The notes beneath the pieces were generated by a model. It had not been told where the DNA came from, did not search any database, and worked only from the letters and a program-made list of their open reading frames with translations. From a phage, in the NCBI GenBank assembly GCA_009015555.1, contig GCA_009015555.1_3613.1: a stretch of DNA of 64,000 bases. The stretch is one strand, 5' to 3'. The position numbers were made by a program, and so were the translations under genes. Below are positions 1,637 through 27,024 of the stretch, one piece after another. The stretch's first letter is position 1, and every line of letters starts with the position of its first letter.

Positions 1637-1717
1637 TCTACATCTCCTCGTACACAAATTCCGGGGCCAATGCCCCGGTCATAACAGAATAGGGTAAGGT
1701 TACTTCTTTGTCAAACT

Positions 1718-2764: not shown

Positions 2765-2778
2765 AAAATCTCCTTTTA

Positions 2779-2982: not shown

Positions 2983-3572
2983 TCAGCGATTTCTTTCCAG
3001 TCCGCTGAAGTTAAGTCGTAATTGATGCGTGGCTCAACATCCTGACTGAAAGGCGTGTCGAACTTGATCTTAATCACGTCGTCCGGGAATTGATTCAGGA
3101 ACTGGTTCCGATCGTCAATGATTACCCCTCCAGCGACGCCCGCTTTAACCTTTGTGGCATAAAAACCGCTGCCGTCTGTCCCGTTGTCGAGATCAAGGAA
3201 CGGACAATGACGCTTCAGGAATCGTACCTTGCTGCTGAAGTGCCCCTTCTTGCAGTAAGATACGAAACGAATCGGGTGCCCGGCCTCGTGCAAACGACGA
3301 ATTGCATCCACTGCCCCGGCAATCGGCGTCATCTTGTCGTACAGATGAGGATCTTCCCAAAACTCATACGGCTCAATCGCCTCTTTGCAACGAGTCGGGA
3401 AGTATTTGGAGAGGTTGTAATTGAACAACCCCTTTTCCTCATAATCCTTGTCCATCAAATCAACGTCCGCAGGGATTTGATAGACACTTTCCATCCAGTA
3501 AAGCCAAGGCCACCCTGAATCAACGAACGTCAGATCTACATCTACCAGGATCGGGGTCTTAGTGAATGACAT
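2961..3572 (-). CDS. HAD-family 5'(3')-deoxyribonucleotidase-like protein
   Basis: N-terminal VDVDLTF (DxDxT HAD motif I) when started at MSFTKTPILVDVDL; AAGGGAG RBS before ATG at 3572. Confidence 0.65.
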   Translation of the reverse strand: MSFTKTPILVDVDLTFVDSGWPWLYWMESVYQIPADVDLMDKDYEEKGLFNYNLSKYFPTRCKEAIEPYEFWEDPHLYDKMTPIAGAVDAIRRLHEAGHPIRFVSYCKKGHFSSKVRFLKRHCPFLDLDNGTDGSGFYATKVKAGVAGGVIIDDRNQFLNQFPDDVIKIKFDTPFSQDVEPRINYDLTSADWKEIADWLLENL

Positions 3573-4218
3573 ACAGGTCGCTCCCTTTACAGTCTTGCAC
3601 AAAATCACAAATCTTACGGACCGTGCCGTTCAGATCGCCTTCTTCGTTCAGGATGTCAGTTTCATACATCCGAAGATGTTCAGGAAACTCTTTCGCATAG
3701 ATATATCGGCGAGAATCCCCATCGAAATTGTACTCCGTGCCATCTTTTTTCAGACGGTGGATTCGGACAAGGAAATAGTTGTCCGGGCCAACCACATTCA
3801 CAACCGGGATCGACTCCTCTAAGAAGCCCCCGTCGCTGACCACAACTACCAGTTGCACGTCTGCCGGGGTTTCATCCTTCAGCTTTTGCAACTTGGCGGC
3901 AAATGCCTTACCAAACACATCATTCCCAAATGTGGGCTTCATGATGTTCTCGGAGCAGTGGATCATCCAGTCACGAGGGCTGACGTTTACGCCGTTGATC
4001 TGGAGATACGGGCACGGCTTCTCTTTGTACTCACGCTCATACAGAGCGAACCACAGCTTACGGCTCAGGCCGGATGCCCGGATAGCGATATCGAACAGAA
4101 GTTCCTTGAACTCCATGTGGACGACTTCAAACCCCGGGGTGTTGATATAGCTGTGGAGACCTTCGCACAGTGCATCTTTTCCCGCGCCCGCCGGGGCATT
4201 CAAATTAATCAGAATCAT
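3559..4218 (-). CDS. Deoxynucleoside monophosphate kinase (P-loop)
   Basis: MILINLNAPAGAGKD Walker A at N-terminus; start overlaps upstream stop as TAATG (translational coupling). Confidence 0.72.
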   Translation of the reverse strand: MILINLNAPAGAGKDALCEGLHSYINTPGFEVVHMEFKELLFDIAIRASGLSRKLWFALYEREYKEKPCPYLQINGVNVSPRDWMIHCSENIMKPTFGNDVFGKAFAAKLQKLKDETPADVQLVVVVSDGGFLEESIPVVNVVGPDNYFLVRIHRLKKDGTEYNFDGDSRRYIYAKEFPEHLRMYETDILNEEGDLNGTVRKICDFVQDCKGSDLYVIH

Positions 4219-4529
4219 TAGTGCTCCCACTCCTCTCTGTACCATTTTGGCATAGGTGCCAAATAACCATTCACACGCTCAAGTTCGTTAAGGATCTTCT
4301 CTGCCGAACTTAATTTTGTAAAGCGGCGGAGGGTCTTCCACCCCTTGTAATGAACCGGGAGTTCAAAACACTCATAAGAGCCTTCGCAATACCTGAACTC
4401 TTGAACCCGATACTTAAAGAAATAAGCTCTCGGGTCGTACTGGATTCGATATTTGAACTGATCGCCATTATCCCGATGCGCCTGCTTTTTGTCAAGGGCC
4501 TTTTTCATTTCTTGGGAGATGAACATCAT
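4218..4529 (-). CDS. hypothetical protein (103 aa)
   Basis: ORF with coupled stop/start to downstream kinase gene. Confidence 0.5.
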   Translation of the reverse strand: MMFISQEMKKALDKKQAHRDNGDQFKYRIQYDPRAYFFKYRVQEFRYCEGSYECFELPVHYKGWKTLRRFTKLSSAEKILNELERVNGYLAPMPKWYREEWEH

Positions 4530-4546
4530 TATCCTCCTGTTTCAAA

Positions 4547-4572
4547 AAGAAAAACCGCCCCGAAGGGCGGCT
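4547..4572 (-). terminator. Rho-independent terminator hairpin (CCGCCC-TTCG-GGGCGG family) with T-run on minus strand
   Basis: Minus-strand reading ccaagccgcccttcggggcggtttttcttttt directly after stop of 4577..5659 gene. Confidence 0.6.
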
Positions 4573-4576
4573 TGGG

Positions 4577-5659
4577 TTACAGAATGTTCGCCAGCGTTTT
4601 CTTCATCGCTGCCTTCTCACGAACGTTCTGGCGGTCACGGGCACAAGACCCGCATTCCTGACAACGGTACACCTTAAATTTGGACAGGAAGGTGTGGGCA
4701 GATTTGCCTTTTTCTTCCACCAAGTCGTCGGAACCGCAGCGTACACATCGCATCACAGACTGATCCGGGTGGAACAGGGCAATGTTAGGGTGCTTACGCA
4801 TAAACGGACGAACGGTCAGGTACAGTTCTTCCAATGTCGGGATATCCCCGATGTTGTACTCTTCCATTTCGTCGAATGCCGTAGGATCACCTTCCACACA
4901 GCGACGCCACAGACCGAATCCTTCGTGAGACAACTTACGGCTGTCCAGTTCGAAGTAGTTACACGCCGCTTCCAGTGCATTGGAAGGCAGAGAGAACGAC
5001 TCCTTCAGTGCCGCCAGTGTGTCGATCGTGATATATGGGCTTGGCGGTTGCATACCGTAATATGCGAAACGCTGGTTGGCCCAACCACGGTCGAAACGGG
5101 CGTTGTGTGCAATGAAGATATCACACTCGTCAAGGACTTGCCAGAGATCCTGAATCAGTTTTTTATCCGACTGATGATCCCGTTTGAACTCTTCCGGGTA
5201 GTCGGTCAGTTTACGACTGAAGATGGACGGGTTGTGCAGCCACTTCCCGGCGAACGTCAGCATGTACGGCTCTTGAATAACCTGCTTCGGCGCGATGAAT
5301 TGCTTGAAGCGACCAAACGAATAGGCGATGCTCGGAGAGGTCTCGACATCACCAAGGAACACTTTGGCACCCGGGTTATTTTCCTTCACCTTTTCGATGA
5401 AGGTTTTCTGGATCTCTGCCAGCGTTTTACCACCATTGACTTCCTGCTGCATAAAATCAGCGTACTCATCTGGTGTTGGGATACTGTCAATCAATTGTTG
5501 GACAGTTTCCAGATTACGTGCTTCCAGTTCACGCTTCAGCATGTTGCGTACAGTTGACTCTTGAGATTCCTTGCCCAGTTGACGGGCTACCTCGCGCTGG
5601 GACAACCCACCCTTCATCAGAGCCATAACCTGTTCAACAGTAAAAGTCACATTAGCCAA
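4577..5659 (-). CDS. DEDDy-type 3'-5' exonuclease with N-terminal HTH-like region and C-terminal Cys4 ribbon
   Basis: Exo I DVET, Exo II HNARFD, Exo III YNIGD motifs in order; C-terminal CVRCG...CQECG. Confidence 0.68.
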   Translation of the reverse strand: MANVTFTVEQVMALMKGGLSQREVARQLGKESQESTVRNMLKRELEARNLETVQQLIDSIPTPDEYADFMQQEVNGGKTLAEIQKTFIEKVKENNPGAKVFLGDVETSPSIAYSFGRFKQFIAPKQVIQEPYMLTFAGKWLHNPSIFSRKLTDYPEEFKRDHQSDKKLIQDLWQVLDECDIFIAHNARFDRGWANQRFAYYGMQPPSPYITIDTLAALKESFSLPSNALEAACNYFELDSRKLSHEGFGLWRRCVEGDPTAFDEMEEYNIGDIPTLEELYLTVRPFMRKHPNIALFHPDQSVMRCVRCGSDDLVEEKGKSAHTFLSKFKVYRCQECGSCARDRQNVREKAAMKKTLANIL

Positions 5660-9069: not shown

Positions 9070-9576
9070 TTAAAACGCATCACCAAAGTCCTCTTCTTCC
9101 TTGACGGGGCGCTTGAACTTAAAGTCCGGCCCCATGTACTCACTCAGGTAGTCGATATTAAGCGACCACTCCTGCTGGCTGCGCTGCCGCCATGTGGCAA
9201 ACTCACTTTTCAGATAAGCAATGGCCTGATCACGAGTGATCCCATTAACCTTCATGAATTGCTTGATCGCCCTTTCGAGTTTCCCGTTCTTCTCGGCGAG
9301 GCCCGGATGGTGGAACTCATGGCACGGCGGACACAGGCTCATGAGGCCGACCAGTTTAACCTCTCCATTTTCGAATGTCCAGCTTTCATGACACTCAACC
9401 GGATGTTTTCTTCCGTTTCCACCCTGCCCACCACAGATCTGGCAGGTGTAGTTGTGCTCGGCATAGCACTTCCGGCGCACCTTATCCCACCCGGTCTGGG
9501 TGAGGTAAGAACGGAGGTTGTTGTCCCACGCCGTTTGTGGGATCAGGCAGATTTTATGCTTAATCTTTGAAGTCAT
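9070..9576 (-). CDS. Cys/His-rich putative zinc-binding protein
   Basis: CQICGG...HPVECHE...CPPCHEFHH cluster; start taken at MTSKIKHK. Confidence 0.42.
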   Translation of the reverse strand: MTSKIKHKICLIPQTAWDNNLRSYLTQTGWDKVRRKCYAEHNYTCQICGGQGGNGRKHPVECHESWTFENGEVKLVGLMSLCPPCHEFHHPGLAEKNGKLERAIKQFMKVNGITRDQAIAYLKSEFATWRQRSQQEWSLNIDYLSEYMGPDFKFKRPVKEEEDFGDAF

Positions 9577-10111
9577 TACGCACCCTCTCATACCCGCCGC
9601 AGCGGTCAATCAGGGCGTCCGTCGCCCGGTCCCACGCCTTGCCCAAGAGGTTCATCCCCAACCAGTTGGCCTCGTCGTCAATCATCGGGTGGTCTTGGCT
9701 CAGGCCGACACCCCAGATACGATCCCGGTCAGAAGCCTCAACAAAACTCCGGCCCGCAAGTCGGTGCTGGATCGCCTCGCAGCGGAGGCCGAGGTCAAAC
9801 ACCAGACGGCAGTAACAGACATTCTCGACGATCTGCTCTCGGGACTTCTCCCACAGTTCGTTGTTGAACCCCTTTACCTTACGACCAAGCATCTTGGCTT
9901 CCTGCGGGTGGAATACCTCTGTGATCTGCCGGGCGATATTGTGATCGGCAAACAGCATGGCCTTTTCGTACATCATCATGTGCTCCCCGGTGTAGAACTT
10001 AACACCTTCCTGCTCATGTCGCGGCAGAGCGAAAGCCCTGTCGTTTCGGTAATGATTACTGAACATGTCCTTCCACGAATAGAAGAACACGTGCTTGTCG
10101 GTCACCCTCAT
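9560..10111 (-). CDS. NADAR (YbiA-like, DUF1768) domain protein
   Basis: GEHMMMYEKAMLF...IWGVGL pattern characteristic of NADAR/YbiA family from memory. Confidence 0.65.
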   Translation of the reverse strand: MRVTDKHVFFYSWKDMFSNHYRNDRAFALPRHEQEGVKFYTGEHMMMYEKAMLFADHNIARQITEVFHPQEAKMLGRKVKGFNNELWEKSREQIVENVCYCRLVFDLGLRCEAIQHRLAGRSFVEASDRDRIWGVGLSQDHPMIDDEANWLGMNLLGKAWDRATDALIDRCGGYERVRNDFKD

Positions 10112-13542: not shown

Positions 13543-13905
13543 TTACTTGTCTGTCTCCAGGATCTTACGCTCAGTAGCCAGATCACGGTTCTCCGCCAGG
13601 TCGTTTTCGAACTTACTCGGGTAACGAGCCTTCAGCTTGCGAATCACACGGTCCTGCTCTGCATCGAAGTCGGTGTTCAGTGCATCCATCGCCAGTGCCA
13701 GATACCACAGCAGGTCACCCATTTCCTCTTTCAGGTTGGTGGTGTCCAGAGGCTTGCCGTAGAACAGGGACTTCTTCAGGGCATCCTGGAACTCTGCCGC
13801 CTCGGTCACCAGACCCATTGAAGCGTGAATCAGGCGCGGGCCAACCGCGTCCAGATAAAAGTTGTGGGACTCGGTACGGATAGCATCTTTAATAAACTGC
13901 GACAT
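13543..13905 (-). CDS. MazG-like nucleotide pyrophosphohydrolase
   Basis: EMGDLLWYLALAMDAL motif typical of MazG/all-alpha NTP-PPase family; start taken at MSQFIKD. Confidence 0.6.
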   Translation of the reverse strand: MSQFIKDAIRTESHNFYLDAVGPRLIHASMGLVTEAAEFQDALKKSLFYGKPLDTTNLKEEMGDLLWYLALAMDALNTDFDAEQDRVIRKLKARYPSKFENDLAENRDLATERKILETDK

Positions 13906-13959
13906 CAACTTCTCCTTTTCTGTTTCAGTGGGGCCATTATACATGACCCCGTTACACTG

Positions 13960-17775: not shown

Positions 17776-18139
17776 TCTATAACCCTCATACGGTTGTCTC
17801 GTTTCAATGTGTGCATTCTATGATCCAATGATCCTCTTGTCAATACTTTAAATTTTAAATTTTTCATGTAAGATCTATATAAAGATCCTAAAGATCAATA
17901 GGAATCTTCTATTGTTTTCTTGTTTTTAATAATTATTATGAATGTATATGAATAATAATTATAAGATCAATAATTTATGAGTGGAACGAATAAATTATAA
18001 GATTAATAAAACCGTAGCCCGGAGGGCGAGCGTAGCGAGGTTTATAGATTCTATTATTACTTCGTGTGCCTTTCAGGGCTACATGGTTGACAACCGATTT
18101 GATTAATGAAACACTGGGTAGGGTTTCAAAGGAGGGTAT
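17776..18139. promoter_or_regulatory. AT-rich divergent intergenic control region with clustered GATC and AAGATC(A/C) direct repeats; candidate promoter hub / replication origin
   Basis: Long A/T tracts, about six GATC sites within ~130 bp, repeated AAGATC motifs, ttgaca-like -35 near 18090; genes diverge on both sides. Confidence 0.5.
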
Positions 18140-18508
18140 GTGAAGGATTTTGTTGTTCCAGAGGGTTCTTTTGTAAGCCTCCCTACTAAGTGGGGCTTCG
18201 ACTTGCCTGCTGAAGACCTGAAGCGGATGTTCTTGTTACATTTCCGATTCAAGTATTTTGCAGAGCAAGCGTTTCAGAGTGGTGAAGACGTTAGGCGTTG
18301 TTACTATGAGTCACAGGAGACCATGTGTCGCCTGTTTGGTATGTCTGAAGCATCAAGGACGAAGGTTGGAAAGTTTCTCAAGCGAATGGAGGCATCGGGC
18401 CACATTTCCATCATACGTGAGAAAGTAATGCTGTACGGTTCAATGAAGCCACGGCACTACATTGTGGTCAATGACCCTGTGCTATTGGAAAGGTATGGTC
18501 TTTCTTAG
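18140..18508 (+). CDS. hypothetical protein, possible winged-helix DNA-binding (GTG start)
   Basis: GGAGGG RBS then GTG; first rightward gene. Confidence 0.45.
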   Translation: MKDFVVPEGSFVSLPTKWGFDLPAEDLKRMFLLHFRFKYFAEQAFQSGEDVRRCYYESQETMCRLFGMSEASRTKVGKFLKRMEASGHISIIREKVMLYGSMKPRHYIVVNDPVLLERYGLS

Positions 18509-18550
18509 ACTATCTGACTGAATCTTGATAAAATGGGGGCGGAGGAACTC

Positions 18551-19201
18551 ATGAACGAAATGCTTATGCTTGGGCAGGCCAAAGCTAAAGCTGGCCTGGA
18601 TATTGATTTTGAAGACGCCGAGATTGGCAGCACCACGATTGTGGACAAGAACGGACATCCTTTCACACTCGTTGGTACTATCGCGACTGGTGGTGGGGTA
18701 GTCGAAGACCCCGAGGTAGGGAAGTGCTTCTACTTCCCCGGTACGGGATACTTCGAAACCCCTATGGTAAAGGACCTTCAACTCGCTGGAGTACCTGTCA
18801 TGATCGAGGCGGTATTTAAGTGGGACGGTGCCGCAGGAGGGTCTATCTGGGAGACTGGGAACTACCCCAGTGGACGACCACCAACACCCGGCATTTGCCT
18901 TAGTGTTGGTCAATACCCTGCTACGTACATCCAGTATTTCATGATGTATACCAACGGGTCTTGGGGCCGTGGCCTACCTCCAGCTACAACCTTCACCGGG
19001 GAATGGGAGACTGTAACCTTCCAACGGTCAAATGATGGAACGGGACCAATGGTTGTTTATCGCGACGGTGCCGAGTTCTCCAGGGTTGCCTTGGGTCCAA
19101 GCCCGATCGGTAATGGAAGCAAGCTGTCGGTTGGCGGGTCGTACACATACGGTGCCTATTGGAAGGGACGCCTGAAAAGTCTTAAAATTACACCACTCTA
19201 A
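18551..19201 (+). CDS. hypothetical protein with possible concanavalin/LamG-like fold
   Basis: GGAGGA RBS before ATG at 18551; C-terminal WKGRLKSLKI reminiscent of LamG domain ends; tentative. Confidence 0.45.
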   Translation: MNEMLMLGQAKAKAGLDIDFEDAEIGSTTIVDKNGHPFTLVGTIATGGGVVEDPEVGKCFYFPGTGYFETPMVKDLQLAGVPVMIEAVFKWDGAAGGSIWETGNYPSGRPPTPGICLSVGQYPATYIQYFMMYTNGSWGRGLPPATTFTGEWETVTFQRSNDGTGPMVVYRDGAEFSRVALGPSPIGNGSKLSVGGSYTYGAYWKGRLKSLKITPL

Positions 19202-19203
19202 CA

Positions 19204-19234
19204 AAAGGCCCTTGACGGGGCCTTTTTCTTTTTG
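19204..19234 (+). terminator. Rho-independent terminator
   Basis: aggcccttgacggggcct hairpin followed by ttttctttttg. Confidence 0.55.
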
Positions 19235-19269
19235 TAAGATCGCTTTACTTTAACTGAGAGGAGAGAGAT

Positions 19270-20160
19270 ATGATTCGTGCATATTTAGGCGGAAGTCAGT
19301 TGGACATCGAGTTCAGCACATTTGCCGGGGGCGAGAGAAACGTCCTCATCAAGGGTTTCCAATGGCCCAGTCCGTTCAATGCGGATCTGAAAGAGAAGAT
19401 GCCAGAAGGTAAAGACCTTGTTGTCTACGCCCATGTTGACAGTTCAGATGCCATCATGGACCTGCTGCTGTTTACCGACGCATTCAACCGCATGGGTCGA
19501 GGCACAGGCAACCAGGTGAAGAAGGTCTGTTATGTGCCATACATCCCGTATGCCCGTCAAGACCGAGTGATGGTTCCTGGAGAACCGCTGTCGTCGGCAG
19601 TGTTTGGAACACTTATCAACCTGTGTGGATTTGACCGTATCATTGTTGATGACCCGCACTCAGATGTGTCTCCGTCACACATCAAGAACGTTGCCATTTT
19701 CGAACAATATGAACTGGCCTTGGATATTCTTGGCCCGGGCTTCTTCGACGATGCCGTTATCGTAGCTCCGGACGCCGGGGCAATCAAGAAGGTCACGAAG
19801 TTGGCTCAGAAGGTCAACCACCGTGAAATCGGGGTTGGGACCAAGCATCGTGACCTTATGACCAATAACATCACTGACACGACTTATGCCGGGCCGGATG
19901 TTAATGGTAAGCGTGTCATCATGGTTGATGACATTTGCGACGGAGGTCGTACATTTATCGAGCTTGGTAAGGTTCTCCGTGCCAATGGTGCGAAAGAGGT
20001 TGTTCTGTACACCACGCACGGGATTTATTCCTACGGCGCGGATGTGTTTAAGGACGTTATTGATGAGGTTTACTCCGCCTATCCGTGGATGAAGAACCTG
20101 GAAGGCCGAAACGAAAATAATATTTTCAAATCTGTTGACAAGATGGTTGAGTTCAAGTAA
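19270..20160 (+). CDS. PRPP synthetase (Prs)-family phosphoribosyl-pyrophosphokinase; candidate ADP-ribose pyrophosphate synthetase (Adps) of a NARP1-type pathway
   Basis: Type I PRTase/Prs motif VIMVDDICDGGRTF and Prs-like N-terminal half (PYARQDR); strong RBS GAGGAGAGAGAT-ATG. Confidence 0.75.
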   Translation: MIRAYLGGSQLDIEFSTFAGGERNVLIKGFQWPSPFNADLKEKMPEGKDLVVYAHVDSSDAIMDLLLFTDAFNRMGRGTGNQVKKVCYVPYIPYARQDRVMVPGEPLSSAVFGTLINLCGFDRIIVDDPHSDVSPSHIKNVAIFEQYELALDILGPGFFDDAVIVAPDAGAIKKVTKLAQKVNHREIGVGTKHRDLMTNNITDTTYAGPDVNGKRVIMVDDICDGGRTFIELGKVLRANGAKEVVLYTTHGIYSYGADVFKDVIDEVYSAYPWMKNLEGRNENNIFKSVDKMVEFK

Positions 20161-20211
20161 TATTCACAACGTTCCGGGGCACATTGCCCCAATTTAACTG
20201 AGGAGATTTAT

Positions 20212-22002
20212 ATGTTACATAACGACCTGCCTATCCTGTTTGCTGACTGGTACAAACCGAGCCATATTTCCATGTACAGCAAACAGTCTGAGATCGTACA
20301 AGACAACATGACCCCACGCTCAAGCAAACACTTTCAGCACTTTTCTGACAGTGACCAGCGCGTCATGTCTGCTGGCCTGCAAGGCTTTATTAAGTGGTTC
20401 CTGATTGAACACTTCAACCGTGAGTTCTTCGGTCGTCCGAAGGAAGAAGTTATCGGGGAGTTCAAAGAGATCTGTGACCTGGCGATCGGCCCAGACATGG
20501 TTGAAACGTGGGGCTTCGAAAAGCTGCATGACCTGGGCTATCTGCCTGTTGAAATCCGCGCCCTGCCGGAAGGTACTCTTTCTCCGGTACAAGTGCCTCT
20601 GTTCACAATTCAGAACACGCACCCGGACTTCTACTGGCTTCCTAACTACCTGGAGTCAGTGATCTCCTCTGAAAACTGGAAAACCGTAACTACGGCAACC
20701 ATTTTCTGGCAGTATCGTAAGCTGGCTGAACTGTGGGCGCAGAAAACCTGCGACAACAACCTGCACGTCCCGTTCCAGATTCATTGCTTCGCTTATCGCG
20801 GCCAGGCTGGCACTCACGATGCGGCCCAGTCTGAACTGGGACAACTGATGAACTCTCAGGGCACCGACACCATCCCGGCGATCCTGTATGCAAACCGTTA
20901 TTACGGTATGAAAGGCAAGTTCGTATCCGGCTCCATCCCGGCATCCGAGCACAGCGTTGCAACAACGAACATCGGGTTCATCATCGGACGCCTCCGTTCT
21001 GAGCATCCGGAAATGTCGCTGGATGACCTGCGTTTCCACGCAGAAGTCGAGTTCCTGCGCCGATACATCACTGAAATCTTCCCGAAAGGTTTCGTGTCTT
21101 ATGTCGGCGACAGTTATGACTGGTTCCGCCTGATCACTCAGGGTGTTCGTATCCTGAAAGACGAAATCATGGCCCGTGATGGTCGTGTGGTATTCCGCCC
21201 GGATTCCGGCGTACCGGAAGACATCATCTGCGGCACACTGGACTGGCGTAAGATTGAAGACCTCGACACGGCAGGTACTCTGGAACGCGCTGCCAATTGG
21301 GCACTGGAAAGTGCCGAAGATGAAGTTCGTGAGAACACCCCGCACGGTGAATGCGGTGATGAATCCGTTGAACGTTACTTCCTGTTCGATGGCGATCTGT
21401 ACCTGATGAAGGGTGAGATTGACTGGAACCGTCACGACAAAACGTATTACTACATCGACGGTCGCCGTGTTCTGTCTTACGAAAAGGCAGAACTCACTGA
21501 TGAGCAGAAAGGTTCTGTTGAACTGCTGTACGATGTGTTCGGTGGCGACCTGAACTCCAAAGGCTATCGTACTCTGGACACCCACGTCGGCCTGATTTAC
21601 GGTGACTCCATCACCGTTGCTCGCGCCAAAGAGATCTTCGAGCGCCTGGAAGCAAAAGGCTTTGCATCGAACAACGTTGTGTTCGGTGTCGGTTCCTTCA
21701 CCACCCAGTTCAACACTCGTGATTCTCTGGGTCAGGCAGTCAAGGCGACAGGCGCGGTTATTGACGGTCAGCAGATCATGGTCGTCAAAGAGCCTAAGAC
21801 CGACCTCGGCAAGAAGTCTGCTCAGGGCTTCCTGAAGGTTGTTCGTGGTGAAGACGGTGAACTGAAGCTGGTTGATAACCTCCAACTGGAGCAAGTCAAC
21901 GATACCGACAATGAACTGCGTGTGGTTTTCCGTGACGGCGTTCTGCTGGTTGACGAAACGCTGACTGAAATCCGTGAGCGTGTCACAGCAAACCTGAAAT
22001 AA
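20212..22002 (+). CDS. Nicotinamide phosphoribosyltransferase (NAMPT/NadV) family protein; candidate nicotinamide ADPR transferase (Namat)
   Basis: 596-aa NAMPT-family translation immediately downstream of the Prs-like gene; RBS GAGGAG; no NMN adenylyltransferase seen in window. Confidence 0.8.
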   Translation: MLHNDLPILFADWYKPSHISMYSKQSEIVQDNMTPRSSKHFQHFSDSDQRVMSAGLQGFIKWFLIEHFNREFFGRPKEEVIGEFKEICDLAIGPDMVETWGFEKLHDLGYLPVEIRALPEGTLSPVQVPLFTIQNTHPDFYWLPNYLESVISSENWKTVTTATIFWQYRKLAELWAQKTCDNNLHVPFQIHCFAYRGQAGTHDAAQSELGQLMNSQGTDTIPAILYANRYYGMKGKFVSGSIPASEHSVATTNIGFIIGRLRSEHPEMSLDDLRFHAEVEFLRRYITEIFPKGFVSYVGDSYDWFRLITQGVRILKDEIMARDGRVVFRPDSGVPEDIICGTLDWRKIEDLDTAGTLERAANWALESAEDEVRENTPHGECGDESVERYFLFDGDLYLMKGEIDWNRHDKTYYYIDGRRVLSYEKAELTDEQKGSVELLYDVFGGDLNSKGYRTLDTHVGLIYGDSITVARAKEIFERLEAKGFASNNVVFGVGSFTTQFNTRDSLGQAVKATGAVIDGQQIMVVKEPKTDLGKKSAQGFLKVVRGEDGELKLVDNLQLEQVNDTDNELRVVFRDGVLLVDETLTEIRERVTANLK

Positions 22003-22006
22003 TTTC

Positions 22007-22029
22007 AGCCGCCCTTCGGGGCGGTTTTT
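22007..22029 (+). terminator. Rho-independent terminator
   Basis: agccgcccttcggggcggttttt immediately after NAMPT-like stop. Confidence 0.7.
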
Positions 22030-22047
22030 AACTATCCGGAGGATGAA

Positions 22048-22206
22048 ATGAAACTGAATGAATCTCAGTATCTGGCGGCAAGAAAGGCGTTTGTGGAAAA
22101 TTCCGTATTCGATAATATCCGTATGTGGGTGGAAGATGGGCAAATGTCAGAGGATGAGCTTCGGGTGTTGATTGGAGAGATCTTCGCTCCCGTGGAGGTA
22201 GAATGA
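22048..22206 (+). CDS. small hypothetical protein (52 aa)
   Basis: ATG with GGAGGATGAA RBS; not in ORF track (<60 aa). Confidence 0.3.
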   Translation: MKLNESQYLAARKAFVENSVFDNIRMWVEDGQMSEDELRVLIGEIFAPVEVE

Positions 22207-22394
22207 GAAACCCAGTTGCACGAAACGACTTTAACCGGGCAGCAACGCACCCAGATCGCTCTAAGCGGCCTCAAAAGACTGTAGACGAGGGTTTGCTCGA
22301 CTACTTTGCAGAAAACGCTGAGAACGTCGCATACAGCGAATATGAACGTGCCTCTACAAACGCTCCGGGCGCTCCCCTTCCACCCGGGCGTTGA
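22203..22394 (+). CDS. hypothetical protein (63 aa)
   Basis: ORF with ATGA overlap to upstream small ORF. Confidence 0.3.
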   Translation: MRNPVARNDFNRAATHPDRSKRPQKTVDEGLLDYFAENAENVAYSEYERASTNAPGAPLPPGR

Positions 22395-22453
22395 CTATCA
22401 TTAAGTCCTCCAGTAAAATGACCATATCACTTGATTAACTTACTGTTGGACTT

Positions 22454-22705: not shown

Positions 22706-22938
22706 GAAAGTTCCATTACTTAGTCACCATCGACCTGGATGATGACCACCTTGAGCAGATGGTTAAGGACCAGCCTGACCTTATCGACTGCGAGACGTTC
22801 GAAGGAGTAGCCCCGGAAAACTTCGTAAGTGTTTTCGCAGAGAAGATGACCGAAGGTATTGACGAGGCTTTACAAGAAGGTCTCGGTGACGCTGGCAACA
22901 GCAAAGTTAAAACTATTTTCGCAGGAGAATGCAAATGA
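22702..22938 (+). CDS. small highly acidic protein (78 aa)
   Basis: Asp/Glu-rich (TIDLDDDHLEQMVKDQPDLIDCETFEG); ATGA-coupled to upstream acidic ORF. Confidence 0.45.
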   Translation: MRKFHYLVTIDLDDDHLEQMVKDQPDLIDCETFEGVAPENFVSVFAEKMTEGIDEALQEGLGDAGNSKVKTIFAGECK

Positions 22939-23161
22939 ACAGCACCGAATTAGTGATCGGCTACGGAGAAGGCATTCGTAGCGAAGAGGACTGGGGAGTT
23001 TTCGATGAGCGCCCGGACCTTTAATCACCTGCCGGGGGCGGATGACCCCCGGAACCACGAATATAAGGGATACATCTGCCTTTGTTTTGTGTGCGGAAAC
23101 AAATATCTTGGTCCAAAACGCTCGGTTATGTGCAATCTTTGTGCAAACGGTAAAAAGCCTG

Positions 23162-23190
23162 TTGACAAAGAGTAGAGCTACAGGTAATCT
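23162..23190 (+). promoter_or_regulatory. Candidate sigma70-type promoter upstream of tRNA array
   Basis: TTGACA at 23162-23167, 17-nt spacer, TAATCT at 23185-23190. Confidence 0.4.
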
Positions 23191-23477
23191 GAATATGTCC
23201 CGAACGAGATGACAATCAAGTAGGTGGATGGATAAGTCAACCCGGTCTGTTAAACGACCAAAGTGCCATTGCGGTTCGGGTTGAGTTCAGCCGGATAAAC
23301 AGCGGCTCCATCGACGGCCTCTGGAATAGCGACGGTTGCTTCAGGTCTCACGACCACCCGTTACGTGAAACACGCTTTTGCTGGACGAGAAGGGGAAGTC
23401 AACCCCACGGGCATACGTCCTCTGCCCATTTCTCCCTCCCCCGGAGCGTAACAACTACCGGACTTGCTGGGAGACTT

Positions 23478-23553
23478 GCTGGATTAGCTCAGTAGGTAGA
23501 GCGCCTCACTTGTAATGAGGATGTCGCGGGTTCGATTCCTGCATCCAGCACCA
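23478..23553 (+). tRNA. tRNA-Thr (anticodon TGT)
   Basis: Cloverleaf read by eye: acceptor gctggat/atccagc, anticodon loop cttgtaa, T-loop ttcgatt, CCA encoded. Confidence 0.8.
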
Positions 23554-23559
23554 GATCAT

Positions 23560-23636
23560 GCAACGTTGCCGGAGTCTGGTAACGGCTCTCGCTGCAAACG
23601 AGATGAGCACTGGTTCGAATCCAGTACGTTGCTCCA
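23560..23636 (+). tRNA. tRNA-Cys (anticodon GCA)
   Basis: Acceptor gcaacgt/acgttgc, anticodon stem tctcg/cgaga, loop ctgcaaa, T-loop ttcgaat, CCA. Confidence 0.75.
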
Positions 23637-23637
23637 A

Positions 23638-23714
23638 GCGCCTTTGGTCCAATTGGTAGAGGCACTACATTCAAAATGTAGGGGTTCCCAGTTCGAATCT
23701 GGGAAGGCGCACCA
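23638..23714 (+). tRNA. tRNA with CAA anticodon (Leu by anticodon) but short variable arm
   Basis: Acceptor gcgcctt/aaggcgc, anticodon stem ctaca/tgtag, loop ttcaaaa, T-arm cccag-ttcgaat-ctggg, CCA; only 5-nt variable region. Confidence 0.6.
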
Positions 23715-23730
23715 AAATTTATGTAACCTA

Positions 23731-23759
23731 TTGACATAGTGTAATTATACTGCTAATAT
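23731..23759 (+). promoter_or_regulatory. Sigma70-type promoter for the small gene embedded in the tRNA array
   Basis: TTGACA 23731-23736, 17-nt spacer, TAATAT 23754-23759, then RBS and ATG at 23786. Confidence 0.6.
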
Positions 23760-23785
23760 GGATACACTAATTCAATGGGGGCATT

Positions 23786-24160
23786 ATGAGCAAGGCTGCG
23801 ATTGTAACTCGTAAGCGTGGTCGCCCAAGCAAAGAAGAGAGCACAGCAATCGCCCTTGAAAAGGCAATGCTTGATCTCCGAGGCGAATTGGCCCGTCTGA
23901 CGCCGAAGGCCATTCATACTCTCGAAAACCTGCTCACAACAGGCACAGAGAAAGTGAAGGAAACCACGGCGAAGTATATCCTTGAGCAGGCGAAAGAGGT
24001 TAACAACCTCTATACTGAAGAGGATAACGAAGACGACGCAGCAGGCGGCACAACATCTGCCTCTTCTGAAACTCACGCTGGTTCTTCTGACGAGATGAAA
24101 AATGCCATCCCGTTGACAACCCAGATTCGTGAGTATAAAGCAGTAGGCGAAGATGATTAA
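23786..24160 (+). CDS. small protein with AT-hook-like RKRGRPSK motif (124 aa)
   Basis: Own promoter, RBS and downstream hairpin; basic N-terminus, acidic Ser/Thr-rich C-terminus. Confidence 0.5.
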   Translation: MSKAAIVTRKRGRPSKEESTAIALEKAMLDLRGELARLTPKAIHTLENLLTTGTEKVKETTAKYILEQAKEVNNLYTEEDNEDDAAGGTTSASSETHAGSSDEMKNAIPLTTQIREYKAVGEDD

Positions 24161-24162
24161 CT

Positions 24163-24190
24163 GGAAGGCTCCCGAAGGAGCCTTTATTAG
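24163..24190 (+). terminator. Terminator-like hairpin
   Basis: aaggctcccgaaggagcctt hairpin followed by tattag (weak T tract). Confidence 0.4.
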
Positions 24191-24325
24191 AAGTTCTCTT
24201 TTGACGGGCACTTGTTAACGACCCGCAGAATGACGACGGTGTACAACGGCGTTTGATGGCGAGGAAGGTCTATAGGGATCAGCGCAGATCCTTGGATGTC
24301 AGGTGAGCCGTACAAAAGAGAATTT

Positions 24326-24413
24326 GGGGAGTTATTTCCGTAGAGGTAGCGGTGCAGACTGTAAATCTGTTGTCATTGCGACTCGGGTGGTTCGACTCCA
24401 TCACTCCCCACCA
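24326..24413 (+). tRNA. tRNA-Tyr (anticodon GTA), long variable arm
   Basis: Acceptor ggggagt/actcccc, anticodon loop ctgtaaa, T-loop ttcgact, CCA. Confidence 0.75.
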
Positions 24414-24419
24414 AATTAT

Positions 24420-24514
24420 AGTAGGATGGCTGAGTGGCTTAAAGCAGCATCTTGGAAAGGTGTCGGATCAGGTAACCCCTGGTCCCGGGAGTTCAAATCT
24501 CCCTCCTACTGCCA
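24420..24514 (+). tRNA. tRNA-Ser (anticodon GGA), long variable arm
   Basis: Acceptor agtagga/tcctact, anticodon loop cttggaa, T-loop ttcaaat, CCA. Confidence 0.7.
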
Positions 24515-24518
24515 GACC

Positions 24519-24595
24519 GGATCGTTAGCTCAATTGGTTAGAGCAAGGGACTTTTAATCCCGAGGTTCGGGGTTCGAGTCCCTGACGGTCCACCA
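24519..24595 (+). tRNA. tRNA-Lys (anticodon TTT)
   Basis: Acceptor ggatcgt/acggtcc, anticodon loop cttttaa, T-loop ttcgagt, CCA. Confidence 0.75.
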
Positions 24596-24760
24596 GAAAG
24601 GAAGAGGGTCCAAGCTGGTAATGCGAGAGGCGAGTCCTCAGACCAAAGCCCAGATGGAGGCCACCCTAAAGTCGTCCAACCGAAGGTCCCTGATTGAGTA
24701 ATACTTCCCCGCTTGTCGGGTACAGTTCTCAGTCACACCGGAAGGGGCGCACCCTATAAT

Positions 24761-24836
24761 TGACGGTGAGCATATAAGGACATGCGGGGGCCTGTTAAGT
24801 CCAGGATAGCTGGTTCGAATCCAGTACCGTCAGCCA
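24761..24836 (+). tRNA. tRNA-Asn (anticodon GTT)
   Basis: Acceptor tgacggt/accgtca, D-stem gcat/atgc, anticodon loop ctgttaa, T-loop ttcgaat, CCA. Confidence 0.7.
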
Positions 24837-24945
24837 ATTTGGTTCCGACAAGGTGACGGCGCACCCCGGAGCGACGCTGAAAGATGCAGGCCGACGAACA
24901 CATACGTGTACTTAATCAATAGTCATTGCGATGGCTATTCGTTAA

Positions 24946-25023
24946 GTCCTGGTAGACAAACTGGATAAAGTCACCACCCTTTCAAGGTGGGGTTTGAGGG
25001 TTCGATCCCCTCTCAGGACGCCA
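24946..25023 (+). tRNA. tRNA-Glu (anticodon TTC)
   Basis: Acceptor gtcctgg/tcaggac, anticodon stem ccacc/ggtgg, loop ctttcaa, T-loop ttcgatc, CCA. Confidence 0.75.
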
Positions 25024-25117
25024 ATCTTTTAGGTCGGTAGATTAATGAGCAAAGGCCGCTCGCTGGATTCCAACCCCAGTTCAAGGCGTTCGATTCGTCA
25101 CCTTCCTGCCAAATTCA

Positions 25118-25193
25118 GGTCCTATGGTATTAGCGGTAAACATACTCGCCTGTCACGCGAGAGTCACGGGTTCGAATCCCGTTAGGACCGCCA
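25118..25193 (+). tRNA. tRNA-Asp (anticodon GTC)
   Basis: Acceptor ggtccta/taggacc, anticodon stem ctcgc/gcgag, loop ctgtcac, T-loop ttcgaat, CCA. Confidence 0.75.
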
Positions 25194-25200
25194 CTTCAAA

Positions 25201-25275
25201 TGGGGATTAGCTCAGGGGTAGAGCGCACAACTGATAATTGTGAGGTCGGTGGTTCGAAACCACCATCCCCAACCA
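25201..25275 (+). tRNA. tRNA-Ile (anticodon GAT)
   Basis: Acceptor tggggat/atcccca, D-arm gctc-aggggta-gagc, anticodon loop ctgataa, T-loop ttcgaaa, CCA. Confidence 0.75.
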
Positions 25276-25345
25276 AACAGCCCCTCCCGGGATTGGACCG
25301 GGTTAACGGCAATCGCACACTGAGGCGTCTTCCGGGGGAACAATA

Positions 25346-25422
<77 letters not shown>

Positions 25423-25428
25423 AATTAT

Positions 25429-25503
25429 TGCGAGGTAGTTCAGCGGTAGAACAGGGGTTTCATACGCCTCATGTCGGCAGTTCGATTCTGCCCTTCGCAA
25501 CCA
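25429..25503 (+). tRNA. tRNA-Met (anticodon CAT; initiator, elongator or Ile-lysidine type not distinguished)
   Basis: Acceptor tgcgagg/cttcgca, anticodon loop ttcatac, T-loop ttcgatt, CCA. Confidence 0.7.
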
Positions 25504-25509
25504 AATCAT

Positions 25510-25587
25510 GCTCCAGTAGCCCAATTGGTAGAGGCACTTGATTTAGGATCATGTCAGCGATGAGTTCGAATCTCTCCTGGAGTACCA
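25510..25587 (+). tRNA. tRNA with TAG anticodon (Leu by anticodon), short variable arm, weak T-stem
   Basis: Acceptor gctccag/ctggagt, anticodon stem cttga/tcatg, loop tttagga, T-loop ttcgaat with only ~3 bp T-stem, CCA. Confidence 0.5.
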
Positions 25588-25593
25588 CATAAA

Positions 25594-25667
25594 GCGGGCA
25601 TGGTATAGTGGTTGTGCCTTAGCCTTCCAAGCTAATGAGTCCGGTTCGATCCCGGATGTCCGCTCCA
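25594..25667 (+). tRNA. tRNA-Gly (anticodon TCC)
   Basis: Acceptor gcgggca/tgtccgc, anticodon stem ttagc/gctaa, loop cttccaa, T-loop ttcgatc, CCA. Confidence 0.75.
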
Positions 25668-25740
25668 ATTCACGGTGAGTCACTGCCGTTAAGTGTGAAG
25701 TTAAAAATGCCCGTGGTGATCGGGTTATCTCACCCAGTGT

Positions 25741-25816
25741 AGGGGATTAGTTTAATTGGTAAAACATCGGGTTTTGATCCCGACATCGCGAGGTTCGAAT
25801 CCTCCATCCCCCGCCA
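25741..25816 (+). tRNA. tRNA-Gln (anticodon TTG)
   Basis: Acceptor aggggat/atccccc (A1-C72 mismatch), anticodon stem tcggg/cccga, loop ttttgat, T-loop ttcgaat, CCA. Confidence 0.7.
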
Positions 25817-25898
25817 CATTAATGCTCATTAGCTCTTGTCAGTGGAACTCGAACCCTTAGAGCAGGCGACACAGACGTGTGTTTTAGTGAGCATCAAT

Positions 25899-25974
25899 GT
25901 GGCCTTAATTCAGCAGGTAGAATCCCCGGTTGTGAACCGGGCAGTCGTGGGTTCAAGTCCCACAGGTCACCCCA
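25899..25974 (+). tRNA. tRNA-His (anticodon GTG)
   Basis: Acceptor gtggcct/aggtcac, anticodon stem cccgg/ccggg, loop ttgtgaa, T-loop ttcaagt, CCA. Confidence 0.75.
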
Positions 25975-25978
25975 ATCT

Positions 25979-26071
25979 GGAAGATAGGGCGTAGTGGTAC
26001 GCACCCGGATTTGAACCCCGGCCCGCTGTGGCGACCCCACGGTGATAGTTCGACTCTATTATCTTCCGCCA
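25979..26071 (+). tRNA. tRNA-Ser (anticodon TGA), long variable arm
   Basis: Acceptor ggaagat/atcttcc, anticodon loop tttgaac, long variable arm, T-loop ttcgact, CCA. Confidence 0.65.
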
Positions 26072-26092
26072 CCCCTGATCATAAGGCAAACT

Positions 26093-26785
26093 ATGTTAGA
26101 AATGTTAACAGTGGGTAAATACACCCCTAGTCCTATAATTTCTAGCCCTATGGATGCTTATTTTGAGGGCGAGAGGAATAATAAATACGGCACTGTTGAG
26201 TGGGTTGTTCCTCAAGGCGTCACCTCAATCTGCTGTGTAGTGATAGGCGCAGGATCTTCTGGCAGAAGCGGCGGTCTTTCTTGGAGAAACAACATTCCAG
26301 TTACACCTGGTGAAAAACTTAAAATGCAGGTTAACTCCACAGCCAGCGCCCTCTTGAGAGAGACAACTATCCTTTGTGCTGCCCAGTGTGGCGGCAACGG
26401 AGGAAAAACATATAACTCTGTGAACGACGGTGGAGGCAATGCTGGACAATCACCACATGGTAGAGGTGGTGCTGGCGGCTACACCGGGAATGGTGGTGAT
26501 GGGCATACGTTCACAGGTGGTCCAGGACCAGGGTCCCCAGGTTCAGGTGGCGGCGGCGGCGGAGGCGCAGTTGTGTATCTGAACGGATCATTGACACCAA
26601 CTGTCTGCGGCGGAGTCGGCATGTATGGACAGGGGTCGAATGGTGGCGCTGATAACAGCGCCGGATATCCAGGCTCCGGCGGTTCTGGAACAAGATACGG
26701 AAGAGCAGTCGATGGTTATGGTGTTGTCAGGGTTGTGTGGGGAAATTATTCATTCCCAACAAATGCCCCGAGACCGAAATCCTGA
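26093..26785 (+). CDS. glycine-rich hypothetical protein (~230 aa) embedded in tRNA array
   Basis: Start taken at MLEMLTVGKY (track ORF start at 26042 lies inside tRNA-Ser); Gly-rich GGxGG runs and C-terminal GYGVVRVVWG. Confidence 0.5.
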   Translation: MLEMLTVGKYTPSPIISSPMDAYFEGERNNKYGTVEWVVPQGVTSICCVVIGAGSSGRSGGLSWRNNIPVTPGEKLKMQVNSTASALLRETTILCAAQCGGNGGKTYNSVNDGGGNAGQSPHGRGGAGGYTGNGGDGHTFTGGPGPGSPGSGGGGGGGAVVYLNGSLTPTVCGGVGMYGQGSNGGADNSAGYPGSGGSGTRYGRAVDGYGVVRVVWGNYSFPTNAPRPKS

Positions 26786-26856
26786 TAGGGATGGTCCCTA
26801 CGAGGATCGTCTTTTGCTCAGTGGTACTCAGCATTTACTTAGTATTCAAACAATAT

Positions 26857-26943
26857 AGAAGAGTGGCGAAATAGGTAGCCGCACCGGACTGCTAATCCGG
26901 GGTCCTTCGGGGCCTGAGAGTTCAAGTCTCTCCTCTTCTGCCA
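26857..26943 (+). tRNA. tRNA-Ser (anticodon GCT), long variable arm
   Basis: Acceptor agaagag/ctcttct, anticodon stem ccgga/tccgg, loop ctgctaa, T-loop ttcaagt, CCA. Confidence 0.75.
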
Positions 26944-26948
26944 AGCAT

Positions 26949-27024
26949 GGAACTGTAGCTCAGTTGGTAGAGCGGTTGCCTGAAGAGCAGCGCGTCAGCG
27001 GTTCAAATCCGTTCAGTTCCACCA
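26949..27024 (+). tRNA. tRNA-Phe (anticodon GAA)
   Basis: Acceptor ggaactg/cagttcc, D-arm gctc-agttggtaga-gagc, anticodon loop ctgaaga, T-loop ttcaaat, CCA. Confidence 0.8.

Follow-up and report, generated by a model that had tools for sequence, protein, structure and literature searches.

A probable two-gene NARP1 operon for NAD+ reconstitution in a Certrevirus-type phage

Described NAD+ reconstitution pathways and layout of the operon

NAD+ reconstitution pathway 1 (NARP1) has been described in Bas63 (Felixounavirus) and in the Bacillus phages SpβL1 and FADO, where it is encoded by a two-gene operon with adps preceding namat (10.1101/2024.02.11.579819). The NARP1-AP version of Vibrio phage Gary comprises Adps, the Macro-domain phosphatase Adpp and Namat (10.64898/2026.01.28.702374), and NARP2 of Vibrio phage KVP40 is made up of a Nampt (NadV) and an Nmnat (NatV). 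Tables S1/S2 of the paper reporting the discovery of NARP1 list CR3, CR8, PcCB7V and phiTE as encoding a Namat-linked Adps together with an "Adps-associated" Namat, the Adps entries of CR3, CR8 and PcCB7V being flagged as Namat-linked in Table S1 (Osterman et al. 2024, 10.1101/2024.02.11.579819).

The stretch of DNA analysed here (hereafter, the window) covers 64 kb of the ~149-kb genome of a Certrevirus (CR3/PcCB7V-like), and its positions 19270-22029 very probably represent a core two-gene NARP1 operon, the same Adps-then-Namat arrangement as in Bas63, SpβL1 and FADO. As such, the operon is an ordinary, already known member of the published NARP1 family. It adds no new biology, since the pathway, its occurrence in these phages and the structural determinants behind it have all been published.

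The genes, sites and signals of the operon and the terminator just upstream lie on the + strand. The first gene, adps (ORF A; 19270..20160), codes for a 296 aa-long protein of the Prs family, a putative ADP-ribose pyrophosphate synthetase, and is followed after a 51-nt spacer (20161..20211) by namat (ORF B; 20212..22002), which codes for a 596 aa-long protein of the Nampt family, a putative nicotinamide ADP-ribose transferase. Ribosome-binding sites, AGGAG for adps (19259..19263) and GAGGAG for namat (20200-20205), are found 6 nt before the respective ATG and share a TTTAACTGAG(A)GGAG context. The operon is closed by an intrinsic terminator (22007..22029) with a GC-rich 8-bp stem (six G-C pairs, one A-U and one G-U), a UUCG loop and a U5 run (fold of -15.2 kcal/mol, z -2.2). 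This hairpin is not among the terminators listed by a simple terminator scan, and the phiTE annotation has a terminator at the equivalent place after namat. The original prediction, which had described a Prs-family gene and a 596-aa Nampt-family gene 51 nt apart, both preceded by ribosome-binding sites and closed by a terminator, is thus borne out by the coordinates and signals as well as by the profile matches: ORF A matches PF00156, PF14572 and PF13793 in Pfam and PHROG 619 (E 1.5e-87), and ORF B matches PF04095 and PHROG 448 (E 3e-188). The PRTase motif that it had noticed in ORF A is located at aa 216-229 (VIMVDDICDGGRTF).

The pair had also been placed just after the divergent control region. 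The operon is indeed downstream of this AT-rich region (17776-18139) but does not directly adjoin it, as two genes (18140-18508 and 18533-19201) and a terminator intervene. The latter, belonging to the upstream gene, is a hairpin at 19203-19226 followed by a T-run (fold of -15.7 kcal/mol, z -3.0), and it overlaps the operon's own promoter-like site, TTGACG-17-TAAGAT at 19212-19240 (joint span 19203..19241). The -10 element of this site is contained in a recurring motif, TGTAAGATC (19233-19241); T[GA]TAAGATC occurs 6 times vs 0.67 expected, two of these (17867 and 17960) lying within the divergent region. The site and its motif are consensus matches only. A further promoter-like sequence, TTGACA-17-TAATAT, is found at 20135-20163. 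Early expression of the operon may be proposed solely from these promoter-like motifs.

Class of the two proteins

The product of adps is identical to CR3 gp256 at 295 of 296 positions (99.7%), and that of namat to CR3 gp257 at 581 of 596 (97%). Deposited annotations of CR3, PcCB7V and phiTE all read Prs and Nampt, which would fit ordinary PRPP/NMN salvage: ORF A would be a true Prs producing PRPP, ORF B a NadV/Nampt converting it to NMN, and host NadR or PncC would complete NAD+. ORF A does share its fold and its chemistry, pyrophosphoryl transfer from ATP, with cellular Prs (E. coli Prs, PDB 4s2u), and it exceeds the cut-off of the broad NCBIfam subfamily model TIGR01251 (139.9 vs 113). However, the models passed by the two proteins date from before Adps and Namat were split off and do not tell the classes apart, and ORF A stays below the cut-off of all remaining NCBIfam Prs models scored at full length, equivalogs and subfamilies alike, with no more than 112 bits vs cut-offs of 296-536 (at best 112 vs 297 for the subfamily model NF002320 and 98 vs 296 for the equivalog NF002095).

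Pairwise phmmer scoring left the class of ORF A ambiguous, with 79 bits to E. coli Prs vs 69 to SpβL1 Adps; this was settled by a tree with several Prs outgroups. In this neighbour-joining tree (35 sequences, 277 columns; E. coli and actinobacterial Prs as outgroup), the Namat-linked sequences are monophyletic with respect to the 7 Prs in 200/200 bootstraps. ORF A belongs to this Adps clade, and its place there is nested between the lineages of Bas63 and SpβL1, whose Adps have been validated.

ORF A is 25% identical to E. coli Prs, and at columns that distinguish 12 Namat-linked proteins from 7 Prs in our alignment it displays Adps-type states: DPHS where Prs have DLH(A/T), and, in the ribose-phosphate loop (aa 220-229; 19927..19956), DDICDGGRTF instead of DDMIDTGGT[ILV]. 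Such class-specific columns, those of DDICDGGRTF for example, may act as specificity determinants. Lys192 (19843..19845) is aligned with K162 of SpβL1 Adps, the K162A mutant of which is inactive (10.1101/2024.02.11.579819). The catalytic Lys is followed by TNN in the window Adps, whereas most other Adps show T-G-x at this place.

The Nampt-like protein likewise has the fold and chemistry of NadV/Nampt enzymes (H. ducreyi NadV, 9ke8; Xcc Nampt, 7yqo; human NAMPT), in which nicotinamide displaces pyrophosphate. It surpasses the NCBIfam equivalog cut-off of NF006629 (459.6 vs 405) and reaches 354 bits vs the bona fide NadV of H. ducreyi, both of which would be expected under salvage, although neither NF006629 nor PF04095 discriminates Namat from Nampt. 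In the PDB it is best matched by crystal structures of Namat, 9w5x/9w5w (PMC12774641; E 5e-124, 418 bits), with lower scores for H. ducreyi NadV, Xcc Nampt (190 bits) and human Nampt (~152 bits). Identity amounts to 47% with SpβL1 Namat, 42% with Bas63 Namat and 33% with KVP40 NadV. Assignment to Namat rather than Nampt is based on the clamp motif, the PDB scores and published labels, with KVP40 as the single full-length NARP2 Nampt in the comparison.

In a four-way alignment of the window protein with those of Bas63, SpβL1 and KVP40, no variation is seen at the core residues D12, Y14, F193, R196, D219, H247, R329, D331 and G464-D465. His247 (20950..20952), part of an invariant E-H-S motif, occupies the alignment column of the Nampt/Namat catalytic His. 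In SpβL1 Namat the core set comprises D13, Y15, F189, R192, D215, the catalytic His, R306, D308 and G360-D361.

A further feature in which the two classes differ is the adenine clamp. The published signature of the selectivity-clamp helix (SCH) is GS-X-Φ-X-Φ-X-Φ-TRD with aromatics at motif positions 3 and 7 (PMC12774641), and ORF B carries GSFTTQFNTRD at aa 494-504 (21691..21723), which provides the adenine-stacking aromatics F496 (position 3) and F500 (position 7); Φ1, Φ2 and Φ3 are T, Q and N. Position 5, usually aromatic, is Thr in ORF B and is not an adenine-contacting residue. Among relatives, position 3 is aromatic in 120/120 and position 7 is F or Y in 114/120. In contrast, NadV/Nampt enzymes have non-aromatic residues where ORF B has F496 and F500, and the clamp aromatics are missing from both KVP40 NadV (GGGLLQQLDRD) and H. 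ducreyi NadV (GAQTYQRNTRD), which argues against salvage.

The second clamp element, the selectivity-clamp loop (SCL), corresponds to S37-S38-K39-H40-F41 after TPR (20320..20334) and is of the Bas63 type (TPR-S-D-K-W). The third SCL residue is Arg, Lys or Tyr; with Lys or Tyr in this place, stacking falls to the residue that follows (PMC12774641). In 50 relatives K39 is invariant, and H40 and F41 are at least 90% conserved; we infer that H40 or F41 stacks on the adenine. An AlphaFold2 model of ORF B, built from a shallow 50-sequence alignment (at least 69% identity), has a mean pLDDT of 58 with most of the catalytic core below 50 and is too poor for clamp geometry; a Foldseek search with it ranks the Namat structure 9w5x first, lending weak support (TM 0.34, rmsd 23 Å).

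Published experiments on the homologues also speak against salvage: SpβL1 Adps yielded no PRPP in the reported assay (Fig. 2D, 10.1101/2024.02.11.579819), and the Bas63 operon is functional in a ΔpncC ΔnadR host (10.1101/2024.02.11.579819). Ordinary salvage is therefore very improbable. The original prediction had favoured a NARP1 module over ordinary PRPP/NMN metabolism and had proposed profile and structure comparisons of both proteins; these turned out in its favour, ORF A failing the NCBIfam Prs models except TIGR01251 and ORF B having a Namat as its best PDB match, and the NARP1 reading is supported by the Adps clade, the clamp motif, the catalytic residues and the listing of CR3.

Partner genes and predicted pathway

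A Pfam scan (E≤1e-3) of the 93 ORFs in the first 27.8 kb of the window (1-27.8 kb) matched only 12 families and detected no CTP_transf_like/Nmnat, NadR, Nudix, Macro (Adpp) or RyR (RyDEP) domain; the part beyond 27.8 kb corresponds to structural genes in CR3. That the window holds no NMN adenylyltransferase, as originally noted, is consistent with this result and, for the 64 kb of the ~149-kb genome covered, sets the locus apart from NARP2. The two have in common a Nampt-fold enzyme and, by prediction for the window, the restoration of NAD+ during infection, but KVP40 NadV prefers PRPP and requires an Nmnat, whereas in the window a Prs-like gene adjoins instead. The Adps and Namat core is shared with NARP1-AP of phage Gary, which differs in its Macro-domain gene; none was found in the operon, among its immediate neighbours or elsewhere in 1-27.8 kb. 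The locus thus displays the sequence features of NARP1: an Adps-clade protein with the catalytic Lys, a Namat catalytic core with the SCH motif and a Bas63-type SCL, the Adps-then-Namat gene order on one strand with adjoining genes and a single terminator downstream, and no Nmnat in the window.

The Adps and Namat pair would almost certainly act to produce NAD+ from ADP-ribose and nicotinamide, countering NAD+-depleting bacterial immunity. Host defences with a SIR2-, TIR- or SEFIR-based NADase would split NAD+ into ADP-ribose and nicotinamide; Adps would pyrophosphorylate the free ribose of ADP-ribose at the expense of ATP to give ADPR-PP, and Namat would replace the pyrophosphate with nicotinamide, yielding NAD+ directly with neither an NMN intermediate nor an adenylyltransferase. 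The preference of Namat for ADPR-PP over PRPP would be conferred by the adenine-binding clamp, to which the GSFTTQFNTRD helix contributes F496 and F500 and the N-terminal loop of the partner subunit contributes K39/H40. Both reactions and the anti-defence effect are proposed by analogy with Bas63, SpβL1 and FADO; identity between the tested NARP1 enzymes and those of the window is no higher than 31-33% for Adps and 42-47% for Namat.

If the assignment is right, the phage should resist SIR2-HerA/Nezha, type I Thoeris, DSR1/2 and SEFIR systems, a prediction that extends to Kongming and SPARSA. Against aRES the operon would be expected to give no protection and the phage should stay sensitive, since the product of this defence is ADPR-1''-phosphate (ADPR-1''-P) and no Adpp phosphatase gene was found in the window. 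Such predictions could be used in forecasting the host range of biocontrol phages of Cronobacter, Enterobacter and Pectobacterium, and the assignment could help to correct the misleading 'Prs/Nampt' annotations of CR3-like genomes.

The operon adjoins nucleotide-metabolism and replication genes, and the catalytic core of Namat is fully conserved. Both observations would accord with a dual use, in which, besides NARP1, Namat would make NMN from host PRPP when no defence is active and the operon would serve in part as a general metabolic booster. We consider this unlikely: in an assay supplying the two substrates together, NAD+ was the sole product, and during Bas63 infection the pathway-specific metabolites appeared only with a defence system present (both 10.1101/2024.02.11.579819). 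A role of the extra NAD+ in serving NAD+-consuming enzymes of the phage itself is similarly doubtful, the DNA ligase of the window matching the ATP-dependent and not the NAD+-dependent ligase domain. A further idea, weaker than that of a functional insertion in Namat (see below), is that a NADAR hydrolase, the gene of which was located by a Pfam scan 9 kb from the operon, might feed the pathway with ADP-ribose stripped from DarT-modified DNA.

Insertions in Namat

Relative to SpβL1 Namat, ORF B contains two insertions, at about aa 255-280 (insertion 1; 20974..21051) and at aa 343-431 (insertion 2, ~90 aa; 21238..21504). Both sites match those of Bas63 Namat, which is of nearly the same length (593 aa vs 596) and, as a validated enzyme, also has a ~90-aa insertion; the insertion sequences themselves are, however, unrelated to those of Bas63. 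KVP40 NadV is devoid of both insertions.

In phiTE, CB7 and DU_PP_I/IV, namat is split by an HNH endonuclease gene at the site of insertion 1, and in phiTE an HNH endonuclease gene is also located in the adps-namat spacer. This tolerance of homing-endonuclease insertions between the genes and inside namat could suggest that the two genes are decaying and no longer functional. Such a reading is exceedingly improbable, as both ORFs are intact and of full length with dN/dS of 0.02-0.10 vs CR3 and PcCB7V, no catalytic residue varies among 50-120 relatives, and conservation extends to the ribosome-binding sites and terminator.

Insertion 2 is lineage-specific and is predicted to fold into a helix and a three-stranded β-meander, with pLDDT mostly between 70 and 94 within an AlphaFold2 model that is poor overall. 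It is absent from the crystallised SpβL1 enzyme and from KVP40, whereas Bas63 and all close relatives in the comparison (120/120) have it at the same site, with varying length. No homologues were detected in the PDB or Pfam at E≤10, and no intein-like or mobile-element signature was found. It is rather improbable that this insertion is a functional add-on and not a passive loop. As such an add-on, it might dock Adps and thereby channel the labile ADPR-PP, an idea prompted by the lack of a stable complex between SpβL1 Adps and Namat, the latter without the insertion; or it might offer a surface by which Namat evades host factors directed against it.

Between the window Namat and that of CR3, 12 of the 15 substitutions fall in insertion 2. 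Positive selection was considered and rejected, since dN/dS is 0.09 and the insertion is under purifying selection; dS reaches 0.79 in the insertion vs 0.22 in the rest of namat, and this excess of divergence also at silent sites suggests instead that the region is of mosaic or recombinant origin. Among close relatives, insertion 2 is the most divergent and most length-variable part of Namat, and it is the only mildly unusual feature of the operon.

Identity of the Prs-like and Nampt-like proteins

ORF A (the adps candidate; 19270-20160, plus strand, 296 aa, containing VIMVDDICDGGRTF) and ORF B (the namat candidate; 20212-22002, plus strand, 596 aa) lie exactly where the original prediction had placed them, with ORF B starting 51 nt past ORF A. 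ORF A matches three Prs-related Pfam domains and PHROG 619, while PF04095 and PHROG 448 cover ORF B over its full length. The strong ribosome-binding sites and terminator that had been proposed were also recovered: AGGAG or GAGGAG is found 6 nt before each ATG, in a TTTAACTGAG(A)GGAG context common to both genes, and the pair is closed by a hairpin at 22007-22029 (8-bp stem with six G-C pairs, UUCG loop, U5; -15.2 kcal/mol, z -2.2). At the DNA level, the operon region shares 95.9% identity with Pectobacterium phage PcCB7V and 95.6% with Cronobacter phage CR3; these two Vequintavirinae of the genus Certrevirus have genomes of some 146-149 kb. ORF A is identical to CR3 gp256 at 295 of 296 residues and ORF B to CR3 gp257 at 581 of 596. 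The deposited labels in these relatives are ribose-phosphate pyrophosphokinase and nicotinamide phosphoribosyltransferase.

Phage pairs of this kind have been reported not to be Prs and Nampt (Osterman et al., 10.1101/2024.02.11.579819): Adps pyrophosphorylates ADP-ribose (ADPR) to ADPR-PP, and Namat converts ADPR-PP and nicotinamide to NAD+, together forming NAD+ reconstitution pathway 1 (NARP1). In the same study, operon deletion rendered Bas63 sensitive to SIR2-HerA and FADO to DSR2, and the SpβL1 operon cancelled type I Thoeris, DSR1, DSR2 and SEFIR. The CR3, CR8, PcCB7V and phiTE proteins are present, by sequence, in its supplementary tables as Adps homologues with Namat neighbour 'Yes' and as 'Adps-associated' Namat; in the closest relatives, this exact gene pair has therefore already been recorded as NARP1.

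Whether ORF A is an Adps or an ordinary Prs was ambiguous from pairwise scores alone (Vequintavirus JohannJBalmer protein, 155 bits; Bas63 Adps, 119; E. coli Prs, 79; SpβL1 Adps, 69), and the solved structures that match it best belong to Prs enzymes, which score just 52-81 bits. A bootstrapped neighbour-joining tree was therefore built from 12 Namat-linked reference proteins, another 16 homologues of ORF A taken from databases and seven bona fide Prs (E. coli and six actinobacterial 'No' entries of Table S1). All Namat-linked proteins, ORF A among them, were monophyletic with respect to Prs in 200/200 bootstraps, the window lineage being nested between those of Bas63 and SpβL1. Among NCBIfam Prs models, ORF A passes only the broad subfamily model TIGR01251 (139.9 bits, cut-off 113) and falls far short of all others, equivalog or subfamily (no more than 112 bits, where 296-536 are required). 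In the alignment ORF A carries the Adps state D-P-H-S rather than the D-L-H-(A/T) of Prs, and its ribose-phosphate loop reads DDICDGGRTF, again the Adps state, instead of DDMIDTGGT(I/L/V); we infer that these columns may set ADPR specificity. Its K192 aligns with K162 of SpβL1 Adps, the alanine mutant of which is inactive. The tree and the failed Prs models support the proposed identification of the Prs-like gene as Adps.

For ORF B, neither NCBIfam NF006629 nor Pfam PF04095 is informative, since these models do not separate Namat from Nampt. Among PDB entries, ORF B scores highest against 9w5x and 9w5w, the crystal structures of SpβL1 Namat (E 5e-124, 418 bits); H. ducreyi NadV reaches 354 bits, Xanthomonas Nampt 190 and mammalian NAMPT about 152. 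Sequence identity falls from 47% with SpβL1 Namat to 42% with Bas63 Namat and 33% with KVP40 NadV. Lan et al. (PMC12774641) defined a Namat-specific 'selectivity clamp' around adenine, consisting of a helix (SCH) and a loop (SCL) whose residue 3 is Arg, Lys or Tyr. The SCH of ORF B, G494-S-F-T-T-Q-F-N-T-R-D504, resembles those of the validated Namats (SpβL1 GSFTYQYNTRD, Bas63 GSYTYQYMTRD) and differs from the same site in NadV (KVP40 GGGLLQQLDRD, H. ducreyi GAQTYQRNTRD); in 120 close homologues, position 3 is always aromatic, and 114 of them have F or Y at position 7. The SCL, TPR-S-S-K39-H40-F41, follows the Bas63 pattern (TPR-S-D-K-W), and the catalytic core (D12, Y14, F193, R196, D219, H247, R329, D331, G464-D465) is fully invariant. 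Structural match, clamp and core together support the assignment of the Nampt-like gene to Namat.

The clamp residues and the adjacent Adps gene, together with the absence of an NMN adenylyltransferase (Nmnat) from the window ORFs scanned, rule out the alternative NARP2 pathway, in which KVP40 pairs Nampt with Nmnat. As anticipated, a Pfam scan of 93 candidate ORFs in 1-27.8 kb, which returned only 12 families, contained no NMN adenylyltransferase, NadR, Nudix, Macro or RyR domain; the remainder of the window corresponds to the CR3 structural module. About 15% of NARP1 phages possess the Macro-domain phosphatase Adpp, which overcomes aRES defence, and some encode RyDEP, a RyR-domain glycosidase converting cyclic ADPR signals to ADPR. 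Neither gene was found in the same scan, which points to a putative core NARP1 of two genes, predicted to be aRES-sensitive. All sequence-level hallmarks of NARP1 in the literature are present and, judging from these and from homologues at 31-47% identity, the window pair very probably operates by the NARP1 mechanism. Within this published anti-defence family it is an unremarkable member that had been catalogued before, offering nothing new for specialists.

Namat insertions and homing endonuclease genes

Relative to SpβL1 Namat, ORF B possesses two insertions, one at about aa 255-280 and the other at aa 343-431, both present in 120/120 close homologues. Insertions of unrelated sequence occupy these two sites in Bas63 Namat, a 593-aa enzyme validated in vivo. 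The second insertion of ORF B is variable in length and less conserved than any other part of the protein (frequency of the top residue 0.62, about 0.9 elsewhere), has no detectable homologues, and is modelled by AlphaFold as a helix with a three-stranded sheet, confident locally within a poor overall model. Although 12 of the 15 Namat substitutions relative to CR3 fall within it, positive selection was rejected: its dN/dS of 0.09 indicates purifying selection, and silent sites have diverged as well (dS 0.79, 0.22 elsewhere). The corresponding segment (21238-21504, plus strand) shows dS of about 0.7-0.8 to both CR3 and PcCB7V, against 0.12-0.22 in the rest of the gene. Since dS too is raised, this suggests a mosaic history, with segment exchange by recombination among related phages.

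The window namat is uninterrupted, unlike those of phiTE, CB7 and DU_PP_I/IV, in which HNH homing-endonuclease genes lie between adps and namat and inside namat (phiTE locus, 1562-5398; window equivalents 20161-20211 and about 20974-21051). The latter gene interrupts namat at the site of the first insertion, leaving ORFs of 278 and 332 aa, which may be joined by intron splicing or may work as a two-piece enzyme.

Genomic neighbourhood and ADP-ribose

Minus-strand genes upstream of 17775, including thymidylate synthase ThyX, an exonuclease, ATP-dependent DNA ligase, MazG and a NADAR protein, are separated from plus-strand genes starting at 18140 by a 364-nt AT-rich gap (GC 0.35) with a strong promoter-like site on its minus strand (11/12 match). 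The window contains six copies of the motif T[GA]TAAGATC (0.67 expected): at 17867, 17960, 19233 and 43600 on the plus strand and at 11170 and 55630 on the minus strand. Two plus-strand copies lie inside the gap, and a third, 29 nt upstream of the adps ATG, forms the -10 of TTGACG-17-TAAGAT and overlaps the terminator of the preceding gene. Because it is concentrated in this divergent region and directly upstream of adps, the motif may represent the extended -10 of a phage promoter class. Being shared by both places, it suggests that a dedicated promoter of the control-region type probably drives the operon, which would fit early expression.

Two genes separate the control region from adps, encoding a 122-aa protein of unknown function and, at 18533-19201 on the plus strand, a 222-aa protein with a Laminin_G_3/ConA-like lectin fold (PF13385, E 9e-7; PHROG 6011 'virion structural protein'). 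The latter gene is located away from the structural module; CR3 has it and PcCB7V does not. Directly 3' of namat, CR3 carries a 720-nt 'DNA methylase 2' gene (22820-23539 of its locus), where the window (22003-22450) holds only small ORFs (52 and 63 aa; DUF7230-like); this slot is a variable accessory site adjoining the operon. About 1.5 kb downstream of the operon begins an array of 18 tRNA genes with interspersed small ORFs (23478-27024, plus strand).

The NADAR-domain protein (9560-10111, minus strand, 183 aa; PF08719, E 1.4e-32) belongs to a class described in phages as orphan antitoxin-like enzymes that strip DarT1 ADP-ribose from DNA (PMC11257639, PMC11543638). Given this reported activity, it is likely a second anti-defence gene centred on ADP-ribose; its product, free ADPR, would be the NARP1 substrate. 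That the inserted subdomain of Namat has a function of its own, or that the pathway is linked with NADAR, we consider unlikely. The minus-strand nucleotide-metabolism cluster that includes ThyX and the ATP-dependent DNA ligase also contains an NT5C-type 5'-deoxynucleotidase (2961-3608, minus strand; PF06941) and the MazG pyrophosphohydrolase (13543-13944, minus strand).
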